The notes under the pieces were generated by a model. The model was given only the letters and a program-made list of their open reading frames with translations. It had not been told where the DNA came from and did no database searches. This document shows, one piece after another, positions 47,090 through 55,262 of a DNA stretch of 64,000 bases. The stretch is taken from NCBI GenBank assembly GCA_046758505.1, contig JBHIAH010000001.1, positions 64,001 through 128,000 on the forward strand, read 5' to 3'. Position 1 is the stretch's first letter. Each line of letters begins with the position of its first letter. The position numbers and the translations under genes were made by a program. Source of the stretch: Candidatus Methylomirabilales bacterium (GTDB lineage: Bacteria > Methylomirabilota > Methylomirabilia > Methylomirabilales > CSP1-5).

Positions 47090-48433
47090 ATGCAATTGTT
47101 GATCACTGGAGGGCGAGTGATCGATCCGGCCAGCGGGATCGATGACACCCTCGATATCCTGGTCGAGGGTGGGCAGATCCTTCAGGTGGAAAAAAGCGTT
47201 CAGGGTTCAGGGTTCAGGGTTCAGGGGAAGAAGAACAAAAAGCCAGGGAACCAGGACCTATCAAGTACGCATGTCAATCGTGTGATTGATGCCGCCGGCA
47301 AAGTGGTCGTGCCGGGCCTGATTGACATGCACGTCCATCTCCGGGAGCCGGGACGAGAAGACGAGGAGACCATCGCCTCCGGAACCGCAGCTGCCGCCCG
47401 GGGCGGATTCACCTCGATCTGCTGCATGCCGAATACCGAGCCGGTCAACGACACCGCCTCGGTCACCGAATACATCCGGGAGCAGGCCCAAAAGGTCGGG
47501 CGCACGCACGTTTTTCCCATCGGATGTATCTCGCGAGCGCAGCGAGGCCAAGAGCTGGCGGAGATCGGGGACCTCGTCGCGGCCGGGTGCGTCGGGCTCT
47601 CCGACGACGGCAAGCCGGTCGTCGATGCCGACCTCATGCGCCGGGCGATGGAGTACGCCACCATGTTCGACGTCCCGCTGCTCCCTCACTGCGAGGATCT
47701 CTCCCTCTCCGCCGGGGGGAGCATGCACGAGGGGCGCGTGAGCACCGAACTAGGACTCAAGGGGATCCCTGCTCCCGCCGAAGCGGTCATGGTGGCAAGA
47801 GACATCTTGCTGAGCGAGTACACCGGGGCCCGCCTCCACATCTGTCACGTGAGCACCGCCGAATCGGTCCGTCTTATCCGGGAGGCCCGGGCACGGGGGG
47901 CGCGTGTGAGCGGCGAGGCAACCCCGCACCACCTGATCCTCACCGACGAGGCCGTCCGGGGCTTCGACACCAACGCCAAGATGAATCCCCCCCTCCGCGC
48001 GGCGGAGGACGTGACCGCGCTCCGGGAGGCACTCATCGACGGAACCATCGAGGTGATTGCTACTGATCACGCCCCCCATGCCCGCTCCGAGAAAGAGATG
48101 GAATTCGATTACGCTCCCTTTGGCATCATTGGGCTCGGGACGGCCCTCGGCCTCATCCTCACCGAGTTCTATCACAGCCGCCTCCTCACCCTTCCCATGA
48201 TCGTCGAGCGCATGGCAGCGGCCCCCGCCCGAATCCTCAAGCTTAAGCACAAGGGGACCCTGGCCCCCGGTGCCGATGCGGACATCACGCTCATCAATCC
48301 GAACCAGGAGTGGATCGTCGAGGAGCAGGGATTGCATTCCAAGAGCAACAACTCCCCCTTCATCGGTTGGAAGCTCAAGGGGAGAGCGGTGATGACGCTC
48401 GTGGCCGGGCAGGTGGTCTGGGAGACGCCATGA
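47090..48433 (+). CDS. pyrC: Dihydroorotase (contains in-frame repeat-derived insertion)
   Basis: [33 protein letters not shown]. Confidence 0.96.
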
Positions 48434-49695
48434 AGCCCGCAATGCTGGCCCTCGCAGACGGCACCACCTTTGAGGGGACCGCCTTCGGTGCGGAAGGGGA
48501 GTGTGTCGGCGAGGTCGTCTTCAACACGGCCATGACCGGCTACCAGGAGATCCTCACCGATCCCTCATACAAGGGGCAGATCGTCTGCATGACTTATCCC
48601 CTCATCGGTAACTACGGGATCAACCTTGAGGACATCGAGTCCCGGCGCCCCTTCGTGGAAGGGTTTATCGTCAAGGAGGGGTCTCCGTACCCCAGCAACT
48701 GGCGTAAAGCCCAATCGCTCGACGCGTACCTCAAGGAATGGGGGATCGTGGGCATTCAGGGAATCGACACGCGTGCCCTCACCAAGCATATCCGGGACGA
48801 GGGTGCGATGGAAGGGGTGATCTCGACGGTCGACCTTTCTGCCCAAGGCCTCATCGCGAAGGCACGATCCTCTCCCGGTCTTATTGGGCGCGATCTGGTC
48901 ACCGAGGTCACCTGTGCCGAGCCCTTCCGATGGTGGCAGGGTGCGTGGCGCTGGCCCCATGGCTATCTCGATGACCGCGGACCGACGGCCGACGACCGCG
49001 AAGCCCCGAAAACCCAGCTCGACCTCTTCGGTCATCGGTCATCGGTCACCGGTCATCGCTTTCGAGTGGTGGCCATAGACTGCGGCATCAAATACAACAT
49101 CCTCCGAGAGCTGGTGAGCACCGGTTGCGATGTGGTGGTGGTCCCGGCTTCAACCCCCGCCGACGAGATCCTCGCCTCTGACCCGGATGGCATCTTTCTC
49201 AGCAACGGTCCCGGGGACCCCGAAGGAGTTCCATACCTCGTCGAGACGACCCGACAATTACTAGGCAGACGGCCGATCTTCGGGATCTGTCTCGGGCATC
49301 AGATCCTGGGGCTCGCCCTGGGCGGCCGGACGTATAAACTCAAATTCGGCCATCATGGGGCGAACCATCCGGTCAAGGAGGTTCACACCGGGAAGGTCGA
49401 GATCACGACCCAGAATCACGGCTTTGCGGTCGACATCGACGCCTTCCCGGGCGAAGACGTCGAGCTCACCCACGTCAACTTAAACGACGGGACCGTTGAA
49501 GGCATGCGGCACACCCGACTCCCCCTCTTCTCCGTCCAGTACCATCCCGAGGCCTCCCCGGGTCCCCATGACTCGCGGTACCTCTTTCAGCGTTTTGTAG
49601 CCTTGATGAACCAGGAGCACGGCACGCGAGAGCCGGTGGAGCTGCCCGGGGGCGAGCGAACCCGGGTCCGCCAGCGCGAAGACATCACCATATGA
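48430..49695 (+). CDS. carA: Carbamoyl-phosphate synthase small subunit (contains in-frame hairpin insertion)
   Basis: [43 protein letters not shown] overlap with pyrC. Confidence 0.96.
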
Positions 49696-49704
49696 ACAAC
49701 CGGG

Positions 49705-49840
49705 CAGTTGTCAGCATTTGGCAGACAGCACAAATAAACTGAAGCCGACAGCGGACAGCGGACAACTAGATAACGATAGCTGATTGCTGATCGCTCACCG
49801 CTGACAGATGTTTTCATCGGTCGTCGGTCACCGGTCACTA
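49705..49840. repeat. Heptamer arrays (GCTGAYN and CGGTCRY types) between carA and the 4-OT gene
   Basis: gccgaca gcggaca gcggaca ... gctgatt gctgatc gctcacc gctgaca ... cggtcgt cggtcac cggtcac. Confidence 0.82.
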
Positions 49841-53000: not shown

Positions 53001-53345
53001 TTTCACATCCTGGCCACAAGCGGTACGGCTCGGTGCCTGGAGGAGGCCGGCATCCCCGCAGAGCGCGTCTACAAGGTGATCGAAGGGGTCCGCCCCCACA
53101 TCGTGGACCGGATGCAGAGCGGTGAGATCGTCTTGGTCGTCAACACCCCCGAGGGACGGGCATCCCGTCTCGACTCCTATTCCATCCGGCGGACCGCCGT
53201 CACCCAGGGGATCCCCTGCTTCACGACCATGGCCGCGGCATTCGCGGCGATGCAAGGCATTCGGGCCCTCAAGGCGGAGGGCCTGCAGGTCAAGACGCTC
53301 CAGGAGTACATCGGGGCAGGACGAGAGTGGAACCGTGCAGACTGA
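50067..53345 (+). CDS. carB: Carbamoyl-phosphate synthase large subunit
   Basis: [35 protein letters not shown], duplicated ATP-grasp, MGS domain. Confidence 0.98.
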
Positions 53346-54249
53346 GATGCACTCCCTCCGCCAGATCCAGCCGGACTACTTCCTCCAGCGCTTTGTATCG
53401 CCCCCCATGGCCTTTCAGCCTGGGCAGTTCGTCATGGTCAAGCCCTCGGGATCGCTCGATCCCTTCCTGCCAAGGGCCTATAGCATCCTGAGAGTCCAGC
53501 GCCACATGACGGGGAGGAGAGGGAAGCGGGAAGACGTGGTGGAGATCCTCTATAAGGTGTTGGGAAAGGGGACCACCGCGCTTTCGCGCCTCAAGCCCGG
53601 CGATCGGGTGGACCTGCTGGGCCCGCTGGGAAATGGCTATCGCGTGCCGCAGGACCTCACCACGGCCCTGCTGGTAGCGGGAGGAATCGGGGTGCCCCCG
53701 GTCGTCGCGCTCGCTGAACGGCTGGCCGGTTCACAGTTCCCGGTTCACAGTTCAGGGCAAGGAAAAGCTGGACTTCGGTCGTCGGTCGTCGGTCGTCCCA
53801 AAGTGGTGGCCTTTATCGGGGGCAAATCGTCGACCGATGTTTTGTGTCTCACCGACCTTCGAAAGGCAGGAGCCGCGCTTCAGGTGGCCACCGAAGATGG
53901 CAGCCTCGGGCACCAGGGGCTTGTGACCGATCTCCTCGAATCGTATGTGCGGTCATCGGTCAACGGACTTCGGTTAACGGTTTATGCATGCGGTCCTCAC
54001 GCGATGCTTCACGCCGTTGCTCGGATCGCCGAGCGATTCCAAATCCCCTGCCAGGTTTCCCTGGAGGCCCACATGGCGTGCGGCTTCGGGGCCTGTATGG
54101 GGTGCGTTATACCAGTTCAGAGTTCAGAGTTGAGAGTTGAGAGTTCGAGACAAACTATGAACCGTGAACCGTCAACCATGAACCAGCGGAGCTATAAGTT
54201 GTGTTGTAAGGATGGGCCGGCCTTCGACGCCTCGGAGATTGTCTGGTGA
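53335..54249 (+). CDS. pyrK: Dihydroorotate dehydrogenase electron transfer subunit (three repeat-derived segments); start GTG 53335 or ATG 53347
   Basis: [41 protein letters not shown]...CKDGP. Confidence 0.93.
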
Positions 54250-55262
54250 GTGCGGGCCAGAAAAAGCGTTCACGGTTCACGGTTCACGGTTCACGGAAAA
54301 AGGGAAGCCGTCGTCGGTCGTCGGTCACCGGTCGTCGGTCGTCGCTCCGTCGTCCGGACCTGGCCGTAGAGATTGCCGGGATCCGATTGAAAAACCCGGT
54401 GATGACCGCCTCCGGCACCTTCGGGTACGGGACCGAGTTTACCCCCTTCTTCGATCTCAACGCGTTAGGCGCCATCATTGTGAAGACGGTGACCATGCAT
54501 CCGCGACTGGGAAACCCACCCCCCCGGATCGTGGAGACGCCGGCGGGGATGCTCAACTCGATTGGGCTCCAGAATGTCGGAATCGACGCCTTTTGCCAGC
54601 AGAAGCTCCCGTTCCTCCGAACGCTGGCCACTCCGCTCGTGGTGAACATCGCGGGAAAGTCAGTCGAGGAGTTCGCCGACCTGGCCAAGCGTCTCTCGGA
54701 CGCCGAGGGAGTGGCCGGGGTCGAACTCAATATCTCCTGCCCGAATGTGGCCGGGGGGCTCGATTTCGGCACCGATCCGCGCCTCACGTATGCAGTGGTG
54801 AGGGCGGTCCGGCAAACCACCCCCCTGCCCATCGTCCCCAAGCTCTCTCCGAATGTGACCGATATTACCGTGATCGCCCGGGCCGCCGCCGATGCGGGGG
54901 CGGATGCTCTCTCGCTGATCAACACCATCGTCGGCATGGCCATCGACGTTCGCAGCCGGAAAGCCACACTCCCCGGAGCCACCGGGGGTCTCTCCGGCCC
55001 AGCCATCCGCCCCATCGCGGTCCGAATGGTCTGGGAGGTCGCCCAGGCGGTACAACTCCCCCTCATCGGCATCGGGGGGATCACGACGGGCGAAGACGCC
55101 GTAGAGTTCCTCCTTGCCGGAGCCAGCGCAGTCCAGGTGGGGACTGCCAATTTCCTCGACCCGCTGGCACCCATGAAGGTCCTGGCAGGCATCGAGGATT
55201 ATCTTGGCCGCCACGGCCTTGACAGCGTGACCGATGTGATCGGGGCCGCCACCCCCCCCTGA
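54246..55262 (+). CDS. pyrD: Dihydroorotate dehydrogenase B catalytic subunit with repeat-encoded N-terminal extension
   Basis: LKNPVMTASGTFG, ELNISCPN, KLSPNVTDI, GGLSG; GTGA overlap with pyrK. Confidence 0.95.
   Translation: MSAGQKKRSRFTVHGSRKKGSRRRSSVTGRRSSLRRPDLAVEIAGIRLKNPVMTASGTFGYGTEFTPFFDLNALGAIIVKTVTMHPRLGNPPPRIVETPAGMLNSIGLQNVGIDAFCQQKLPFLRTLATPLVVNIAGKSVEEFADLAKRLSDAEGVAGVELNISCPNVAGGLDFGTDPRLTYAVVRAVRQTTPLPIVPKLSPNVTDITVIARAAADAGADALSLINTIVGMAIDVRSRKATLPGATGGLSGPAIRPIAVRMVWEVAQAVQLPLIGIGGITTGEDAVEFLLAGASAVQVGTANFLDPLAPMKVLAGIEDYLGRHGLDSVTDVIGAATPP

Follow-up and report, generated by a model that had tools for sequence, protein, structure and literature searches.

Five enzymes of pyrimidine biosynthesis in a Methylomirabilales (NC10) bacterium contain tandem heptamer arrays within their reading frames, which raises the question of whether the repeats are translated, and whether they are filler or contribute something to the proteins that carry them. 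All coordinates refer to the window, the 64,000-nucleotide stretch of contig that was analysed. On balance we favor the reading that the in-frame arrays at seven pyr sites are likely translated as floppy segments, and that in CarA they bracket a pentapeptide, QLDLF, predicted to dock on DnaN. A broader and more tentative proposal, which we put a little short of even, is that CarA and PurF of the Methylomirabilales may ride the clamp via true motifs, linking precursor synthesis to replication, with a CarA tether rewritten from selfish heptamers.

Heptamer arrays along the pyr operon

The five genes (pyrC, carA, carB, pyrK, and pyrD, all on the + strand) encode enzymes that are intact by Pfam, in keeping with the first reading. 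In pyrC (dihydroorotase, 47090..48433) the site at 47198..47260 comprises (GTTCAGG)x4 at 47198-47226, an A-rich spacer (GKKNKK), and a decayed opposed arm; the loop is approximately 20 residues longer than in PDB 3gri, and seven distinct lengths, all in frame, are found among eight genomes of the genus. carA (carbamoyl-phosphate synthase small subunit, 48430..49695) is recognized by Pfam and by the structural match of its model to E. coli 1c30_B (Z 56.0, rmsd 1.4 Å, 374 residues aligned), and contains a left arm at 48969..48998, the unit of which changes between genomes, and a right arm, (TCGGTCA)x4 at 49028..49058, that is 83% complementary to it. At pyrK site 1 (53726..53797) a GTTCACA-type array (53726-53754) is followed in the same direction by a TCGGTCG array (53775-53797), with no hairpin and with approximately 16 residues more than in family f7. 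Site 3 of pyrK (54114..54185) has opposed AGAGTTC/G and TGAACCR arrays, with arms at 54114-54146 and 54153-54185, flanked on one side by the Fe-S cysteine cluster and on the other by the C-terminal KLCC. The pyrD product has an N-terminal extension of approximately 37 residues (54246..54356), read from a GTG overlapping the pyrK stop and including (GTTCACG)x4 and GTCGTCG arrays at 54268-54296 and 54308-54356. A start further downstream in pyrD is unlikely, given a Pfam domain beginning at residue 39 and no ATG, GTG, or TTG between 54246 and that position, and is also disfavored by the frame being kept across nine distinct lengths in 12 genus rows.

The remaining two sites are of a different character. 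In carB a degenerate three-unit array (51305..51325, +) lies in a segment eight residues longer than in E. coli, with 84 nt between anchors in 12/12 genus rows and 3/8 rows from other families, and pyrK site 2 (53950..53984, +) is a degenerate array of CGGTCAT type whose loop has kept essentially its ancestral length, with 66 nt between anchors in 10/12 genus rows and 63-66 nt in 5/9 other-family rows. TRF reported neither at a score of 30. As read from the alignments, these two arrays overwrite existing loops without added length, and as insertions they fall away; the in-frame arrays of pyrC, carA, pyrK site 1, pyrK site 3, and pyrD are confirmed. The five enzymes had also been said to carry the same arrays; in-frame period-7 arrays are indeed common to them, but their units fall into three or more types (GGTTCAG/C and its complement TGAACCR, TCGGTCA/G and its complement, and AGAGTTC/G), and the units and the peptides that they encode vary from site to site and from genome to genome. 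No fixed element ends are visible across the aligned pyr sites. Opposed heptamer arms of the same repeat set also lie between pyrR and pyrB (45939..46030), and TRF reports others between pyrB and pyrC (46995..47076) and, as intergenic GTCCAAG/TGGACTT arms, downstream of the operon (55846..55960).

Misassembly is ruled out by bridging contigs from other samples and by congener arrays at the same places. Logan contigs from DNA runs X3 and X4, runs that share a study with the possible source and are hence not fully independent, span every site, with no differences over pyrC, carA, and carB, and two differences in 2.7 kb over pyrK and pyrD.

Reading frame, stop codons, and RNA folding

At six coding sites, 40/40 distinct lengths are divisible by three, bearing out the claim that the frame is kept open, as compared with 7/17 at three intergenic spacers. 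Within the NNAAC arm family, units begin with TGA in 227/281 intergenic cases, in 7/8 genic out-of-frame cases, and in 0/4 in-frame cases (three of which have TCA), although this zero arises partly by construction because the genes were chosen as open frames. Across five genomes, pyrK site 3 has TGA in 12/14 out-of-frame units and in 0/6 in-frame units; in the window the in-frame unit reads TCA. The multiple-of-three length changes, together with the replacement of TGA by TCA when in frame, suggest that the arrays are likely translated and not excised. They are likely tolerated filler in flexible loops; CarA residues 184-207 are predicted to be disordered (pLDDT <50 in the monomer model) and PyrK residues 131-147 at site 1 also have pLDDT <50, as does the Fe-S domain, the PyrK model being unreliable from residue 242 on with a 25-row alignment.

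The hairpins originally proposed are present on the sense strand at carA (folding z -5.1) and pyrK site 3 (z -2.2), marginal at pyrC (z -2.2), and absent at pyrK site 1 (z +0.3) and pyrD (z +1.0). Selection of the arrays as RNA hairpins that would regulate the pyr operon through pausing, decay, or attenuation, with the peptides as a by-product, nonetheless seems improbable to us. This explanation would accommodate three observations: the operon is rich in arrays, with 14 TRF rows in 9.9 kb where the genome as a whole has 1.47 per 10 kb; the sense strand gives the more stable fold at two of the intergenic hairpins; and in 20/35 genomes a carA arm pairs better with its own partner than with arms from other families. 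However, co-variation of arms is predicted by template switching too, and in the other 15/35 genomes pairing between the carA arms is no better than between mismatched ones, one arm having been replaced alone; moreover, the carA antisense strand folds at least as well as the sense strand, pyrK site 1 and pyrD lack a fold, and no Rfam family reaches its gathering score within 44500-56500. We regard as less probable still, and indeed very improbable, that the arrays are excised from the transcript or bypassed by the ribosome to give enzymes of ordinary length. Opposed arms at carA and pyrK site 3 could form excisable stems, but several sites are stemless, every variable length keeps frame, TGA is changed to TCA only at the in-frame unit, and the carA loop, inside the hairpin, keeps its protein sequence while its codons change synonymously; the earlier suggestion of excision is thus argued against.

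The pentapeptide between the carA arms

The clamp-binding pentapeptide was reportedly first defined by Dalrymple and colleagues in 2001, and such motifs sit in flexible, accessible segments. In a recent preprint it is given as Q-phi-x-L-F, with the consensus QL[S/D]LF and positions 1, 4, and 5 essential (bioRxiv 10.64898/2026.05.27.728225). We report here that the loop of the carA hairpin encodes a consensus beta-clamp-binding motif, Q196-L-D-L-F200 (49015..49029, +), which resembles the known motif in its exact consensus, its conserved and free positions, its predicted disordered setting, and its modelled pocket. A Q-[LM]-x-[LM]-F motif is present in CarA in 35/35 genomes examined from the order, in seven families (QLDLF in 12, QLKLF in six, QLNLF in six, QLSLF in four, QMDLF in three, and four others once each), these being related genomes and hence not independent samples. 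Among CarA homologues it is found in 82 of the top 85 and in 0 of the next 35, and in 0/19 parsed sister-order CarAs and 0/129 parsed distant representatives. Over 75 aligned CarA rows, the motif positions are conserved at 97/91/64/97/97%, compared with 34% and 47% for the arms and 85% for the core, and in 17 genomes the variation at positions 1, 2, 4, and 5 is synonymous only. This constraint (positions 1, 4, and 5 fixed, position 2 aliphatic, and position 3 free) fits the published pattern, and from the alignments the carA loop core is probably older than its arms and is held by purifying selection, such that the notion of de novo peptides holds for the arms and not for the loop core.

The motif is the sole order-wide conserved island among the seven pyr sites, and it is present without visible heptamer arms in genomes G016, G017, and G021. 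It is missing from homologues P0063 and P0079 and from the fragment P0082, and it may therefore be dispensable. A single mobile element family carrying QLDLF was considered and rejected, as the motif occurs once in 22 array genes and its DNA varies synonymously. The first reading of this DNA had overlooked the conserved peptide between the arms.

The CarA motif is predicted by complex modelling to dock in the hydrophobic pocket of DnaN. The clamp is that of the congener G011, since neither a family search nor tblastn recovered dnaN from G000, although with an assembly that is 96.8% complete the missing match is not evidence of loss; MutS, a positive control, gave only a sub-cut-off match in G000. 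The model scores 0.63 against 0.00 for the best of three controls, a score that could reflect memory of solved complexes, since a QLDLF-E. coli clamp complex is already solved (PDB 3Q4J); the mark for this score is reached by 116/157 solved pairs and 2/215 mismatched pairs. At least 41% of contacts recur between runs, with partner pLDDT of 38-40, and CarA 193-201 is placed against clamp residues 171-176, 243, 248, 345, 347, and 361-366. A C-terminal Q-phi-x-L-[FL] is present in PurF (TIGR01134) in 29/29 complete tails in the order and 4/4 in sister orders. In DnaE of the same organism there is a segment of this motif type, QGSLL, which we take to be its clamp motif.

Both nucleotide-synthesis entry enzymes, CarA and PurF, likely bind the clamp, as judged from motifs in both and from modelling of CarA. 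We propose that these glutamine-using entry enzymes of the pyrimidine and purine pathways would bind clamps that remain behind on freshly replicated DNA, and that this would couple precursor synthesis to replication. The known clamp clients described in the accessible preprint text are DNA polymerases and repair proteins (bioRxiv 10.64898/2026.05.27.728225), whereas those suggested here are metabolic enzymes. No report of a link between CarA or PurF and the clamp was found among titles and abstract openings or in the available part of PMC5872134; supplementary motif surveys may list them, and subscription papers lay mostly outside the search. An unlikely but more serious alternative than those considered above is that the repeats are tolerated DNA throughout the seven sites and that QLDLF has a local role, in CarA/CarB packing or with another partner common to PurF, its likeness to clamp motifs being incidental. 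The motif pattern is at chance frequency in the G000 proteome (three matches, one in an unrelated enzyme, against 4.6 expected), CarA and PurF are both glutamine amidotransferases for which a shared non-clamp partner is conceivable, the AlphaFold model is of a CarA monomer and the CarA-CarB complex is outside its view, and likeness alone can produce a complex score. Nonetheless, predicted disorder of the CarA loop disfavors local packing, and an incidental likeness would have to reproduce the fixed and free positions of the clamp motif, recur in the unrelated context of the PurF tail, and coexist with a DnaE segment of the same type. We retain clamp docking as the preferred reading of the CarA motif. 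It has long been asked how bacteria match nucleotide supply to replication, and the order-wide selected CarA motif and class-wide PurF motif make a direct link testable. The repeats by themselves are of modest interest, but a short motif under selection can lie concealed in a loop filled with repeats, and the spacers of in-frame heptamer insertions in other genomes are thus worth a look.

Origin of the arrays and related repeats

The genome has 424 period-7 arrays, 335 of them intergenic and 30 inside genes although approximately 84% of the genome is coding, which is a strong depletion from genes. Together with the lengths and predicted disorder described above, this supports the view that a mainly non-coding repeat has colonised loops and termini. 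Period 7 accounts for 732 TRF rows compared with 95 and 128 for periods 6 and 8, and our own detector finds 253 compared with 1, 7, 2, and 4 at periods 5, 8, 10, and 11. The most frequent TRF units are AACCATG, AACCGTG, AACCCTG, and ACCGATG; neighbouring arrays are inverted-compatible in 76/142 cases, against 19% for random pairs; and called genes with internal arrays number 22, including HisF, HisH, TopA, MnmG, and NuoM. The arrays turn over between species. We envisage that they would originate and be rewritten at the DNA level, by slippage and by template switching between opposed arms, with selection purging those that interrupt the frame, introduce a stop, or disturb a structured core. 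The CarA motif would then predate its arms, which would have colonised unconstrained linkers on both sides.

Related heptameric repeats are known as STRR in cyanobacteria. Heptameric simple-sequence repeats in Xanthomonas and Nostoc, as described by Rehm et al. (2015, PMC4692102), share with those here the period of seven, arrays of about four units, frequent inverted pairs, and under-representation in coding sequence. Their units have G-quadruplex-forming G-tracts (GGGAATC, GGGGAYT), whereas the pyr-operon units lack such tracts, a GGG run being confined to the pyrC-type unit; here there are also many unit types instead of one, and a minority lie within the reading frame of conserved genes, with one array replacing another at a given site from species to species. 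Palindromic elements of Rickettsia, reviewed in PMC10969869, likewise occur as in-frame fusions to unrelated metabolic genes, with no evident loss of the fold, but they form families of approximately 150 bp with a conserved peptide, whereas those here are tandem arrays of 20-90 bp without fixed ends, family consensus, or common peptide. Our literature search found no paper pairing heptamer repeats with a four-helix bundle, or on heptameric repeats in protein-coding genes, or on SDR/STRR. The array process is probably tied to four-helix-bundle cassettes, in which the arrays enclose a PF05635 (23S_rRNA_IVP) gene, whereas the pyr arrays enclose none. In relatives, such genes are flanked on both sides by the same kinds of units in 14/25 cases, compared with 0/50 control windows, and the sole copy found in G000 contains an in-frame TAG.

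Heptamer arrays in the pyrimidine operon and beyond it

We describe here two overlapping layers in the pyrimidine operon (pyrR-pyrB-pyrC-carA-(tautomerase)-carB-pyrK-pyrD), tolerated repeat DNA and a selected pentapeptide. The original prediction placed in-frame heptamer arrays in five pyrimidine enzymes, and TRF reports plus-strand arrays of period 7 in open frames in pyrC (47198-47226), carA (48969-48998 and 49028-49058), pyrK (53726-53754, 53775-53797, 54114-54146 and 54153-54185) and pyrD (54268-54296 and 54308-54356), but the arrays in carB and at pyrK site 2 (53950-53984) are degenerate and absent from the TRF output. 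The arrays withstand an assembly check, as contigs from two DNA sequencing runs (X3 and X4, which share a study with the possible source of the genome) span every site with 0-2 differences. Heptamer arrays also lie at about 49700-49840, ahead of the 61-residue tautomerase-family gene (49854-50039, plus strand) between carA and carB.

The genome (2.99 Mb, 62.8% G+C), whose closest named homologues are from Candidatus Methylomirabilales / NC10, is rich in such arrays, and period 7 dominates its TRF rows (732, versus 95 for period 6 and 128 for period 8). The units are diverse, with YGA on one strand in 384/439 (versus 42% of random heptamers), and neighbouring arrays are inverted-compatible in 76 of 142 cases (versus 19% of random pairs). 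As placed by a simple purpose-made gene caller, 335 of the 424 merged arrays are intergenic, 59 cross gene edges and 30 lie within genes, in a genome that is about 84% coding. Among the 22 host genes are HisF, HisH, TopA, MnmG, NuoM, KdsB, QueG and four histidine kinases; chance may account for a few cases with low scores. We note an opposed heptamer pair in HisF and a single array in HisH, both in frame (C13:22474-24803; L239, L240).

The repeats are a variant of known heptamer repeats (PMC4692102), and resemble RPE insertions in lying in frame within genes (PMC10969869). The same site carries different units in different genomes; by a crude count the right carA arm has 25 dominant heptamers across 35 genomes, and in 20 of the 35 the two carA arms pair better with each other than with arms from other families, one arm having been altered on its own in others. 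The arrays of relatives contain a nested, in-frame palindromic hairpin element of 24-27 bases, of which the window's genome has six copies (on contigs C7, C23, C40, C51, C76 and C87), none of them in the window. In pyr genes of congeners (L031, L034, L036, L037, L006) this palindrome encodes peptides such as TSASSAEPS and DFGELSRAV, and it is sometimes nested in itself. Of 41 genomes searched, 28 have four-helix-bundle genes (PF05635) that score above the cut-off, and among 29 loci examined, 25 with both flanks present, a period-7 signal lies on both sides in 14/25, versus 0/50 control windows. This supports an association of the arrays with these genes, which is not a mechanism. The sole such gene found in the window's genome (C116:4019-4306, L051) contains an in-frame TAG and is flanked on both sides by decayed heptamer arms.

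Insertion, overwriting and translation

The proposal that the arrays are insertions fits most sites. Relative to solved structures, PyrC is longer by about 20 residues, CarA by 21, PyrK by 19 at each of sites 1 (53726-53797) and 3 (54114-54185), the PyrD N-terminus by about 37, and the CarB segment by 8. However, within the order the lengths at carB and pyrK site 2 are equal with or without an array, and at these two sites the repeat has therefore overwritten a loop that was already present. The CarA model aligns with E. coli CarA (Z 56.0, rmsd 1.4 Å, 374 residues aligned), with pLDDT under 50 at residues 184-207; PyrK 131-147 is likewise low, and the model of the PyrK C-terminal domain is unreliable. 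A non-repeat C-terminal extension of CarA (about 22 residues; 49620-49695, plus strand), kept in the genus, also has pLDDT under 50. In family f7 (L041, L050), the loop corresponding to pyrK site 2 is occupied by a different C/G-run palindrome read in frame (SPLLKRGAGG, SPLYKRGVGG).

The alternative that the hairpins are removed from the mRNA is disfavoured by both length and stop avoidance. Taken between conserved anchors located in any frame, every one of the 40 distinct lengths that the genus shows at six coding sites is divisible by 3, compared with 7/17 for three intergenic spacers. In TGAACC-type arms a stop is unavoidable within three units. Unit-initial TGA occurs in 227/281 intergenic cases and, in genes, in 7/8 out-of-frame and 0/4 in-frame cases (two pyrD rows, one of them a pyrK arm read in another frame, are left out of the tally), and for pyrK site 3 across five genomes the figures are 12/14 out-of-frame versus 0/6 in-frame units, TCA being the usual substitute, the in-frame zeros being partly built in. 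A substitution of one base that falls precisely on the in-frame unit is the mark that selection on translated sequence would be expected to leave, and on these sequence comparisons the arrays are likely translated rather than excised. We read the repeats as tolerated DNA, persisting wherever frame, stops and fold permit.

A conserved pentapeptide between the carA arms

The selected element is the pentapeptide and not the repeats. Between the two carA arms lies a loop encoding QLDLF (residues 196-200; 49015-49029, plus strand), and all 35 genomes of the order with carA fetched, across seven families, have Q-[LM]-x-[LM]-F there. Among CarA homologues it occurs in 82 of the top 85 and 0 of the next 35; it is found in 0 of 19 parsed sister-order CarAs (20 fetched, one unparsed), 17 of which have a short loop, and in 0 of 129 parsed among 150 distant representatives. 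Across 75 aligned rows the motif positions are 97/91/64/97/97% conserved, while conservation is 34% and 47% in the two arms and 85% in the core, with synonymous codon variation within the motif, and none of the six other array sites compared has a similar conserved island. In three genomes (G016, G017 and G021) the motif is present and heptamer arms are not visible, so the motif is independent of the arms, which it probably preceded, to judge from these alignments. We note that CarA of family f8 (L216, L217) has a long loop with leucine-rich segments and no Q-phi-x-L-F, and that 2 of 37 parsed non-NC10 CarAs have hexamer-type segments in the same loop, QLEFDF (L056, a Poribacteria record) and QMRLPL (L075, a bacterium), possibly as independent gains or by chance.

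QLDLF matches the published clamp-binding consensus QL[S/D]LF; the essential positions of this consensus are 1, 4 and 5 (bioRxiv 10.64898/2026.05.27.728225). With ESMFold2, CarA 170-222 and the DnaN sliding clamp of a congener (G011) score 0.63 (best control 0.00), the mark used being reached by 116/157 solved and 2/215 mismatched pairs. The runs have at least 41% of contacts in common, with a partner pLDDT of 38-40, and CarA 193-201 contacts clamp residues 171-176, 243, 248, 345, 347 and 361-366. Because a QLDLF-clamp structure is already solved, the model indicates likeness, not binding. We predict direct clamp binding with somewhat better than even confidence; that it helps to couple nucleotide synthesis to replication is a more tentative prediction, at slightly below even. 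In a literature search we found no report linking CarA or PurF to the clamp.

PurF and other candidate motifs

A motif scan of the proteome of the window's genome gave three strict matches, versus 4.6 expected by composition: CarA, an internal site of a 409-residue enzyme, and the C-terminus of a 469-residue protein. The last is PurF (C51:4588-5997; L137:589-1998, plus strand), ending QLNLF. Of the 30 PurF loci fetched in the order, 29 have a complete tail, the other being truncated where its contig stops, and all 29 carry Q-phi-x-L-[FL], two of them ending in L. The tail motif also occurs in 4/4 genomes of sister orders, being conserved throughout the class, and beyond the phylum two of the seven complete tails have it, a third having the hexamer-type QLTLKL. 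Further candidate clamp-type motifs in this genome are QPSLFE, at the end of a 356-residue protein (C78:7729-8799), and QPGLF, in a 539-residue protein (C57:14367-15986) whose N-terminus is presumably DnaX-like.
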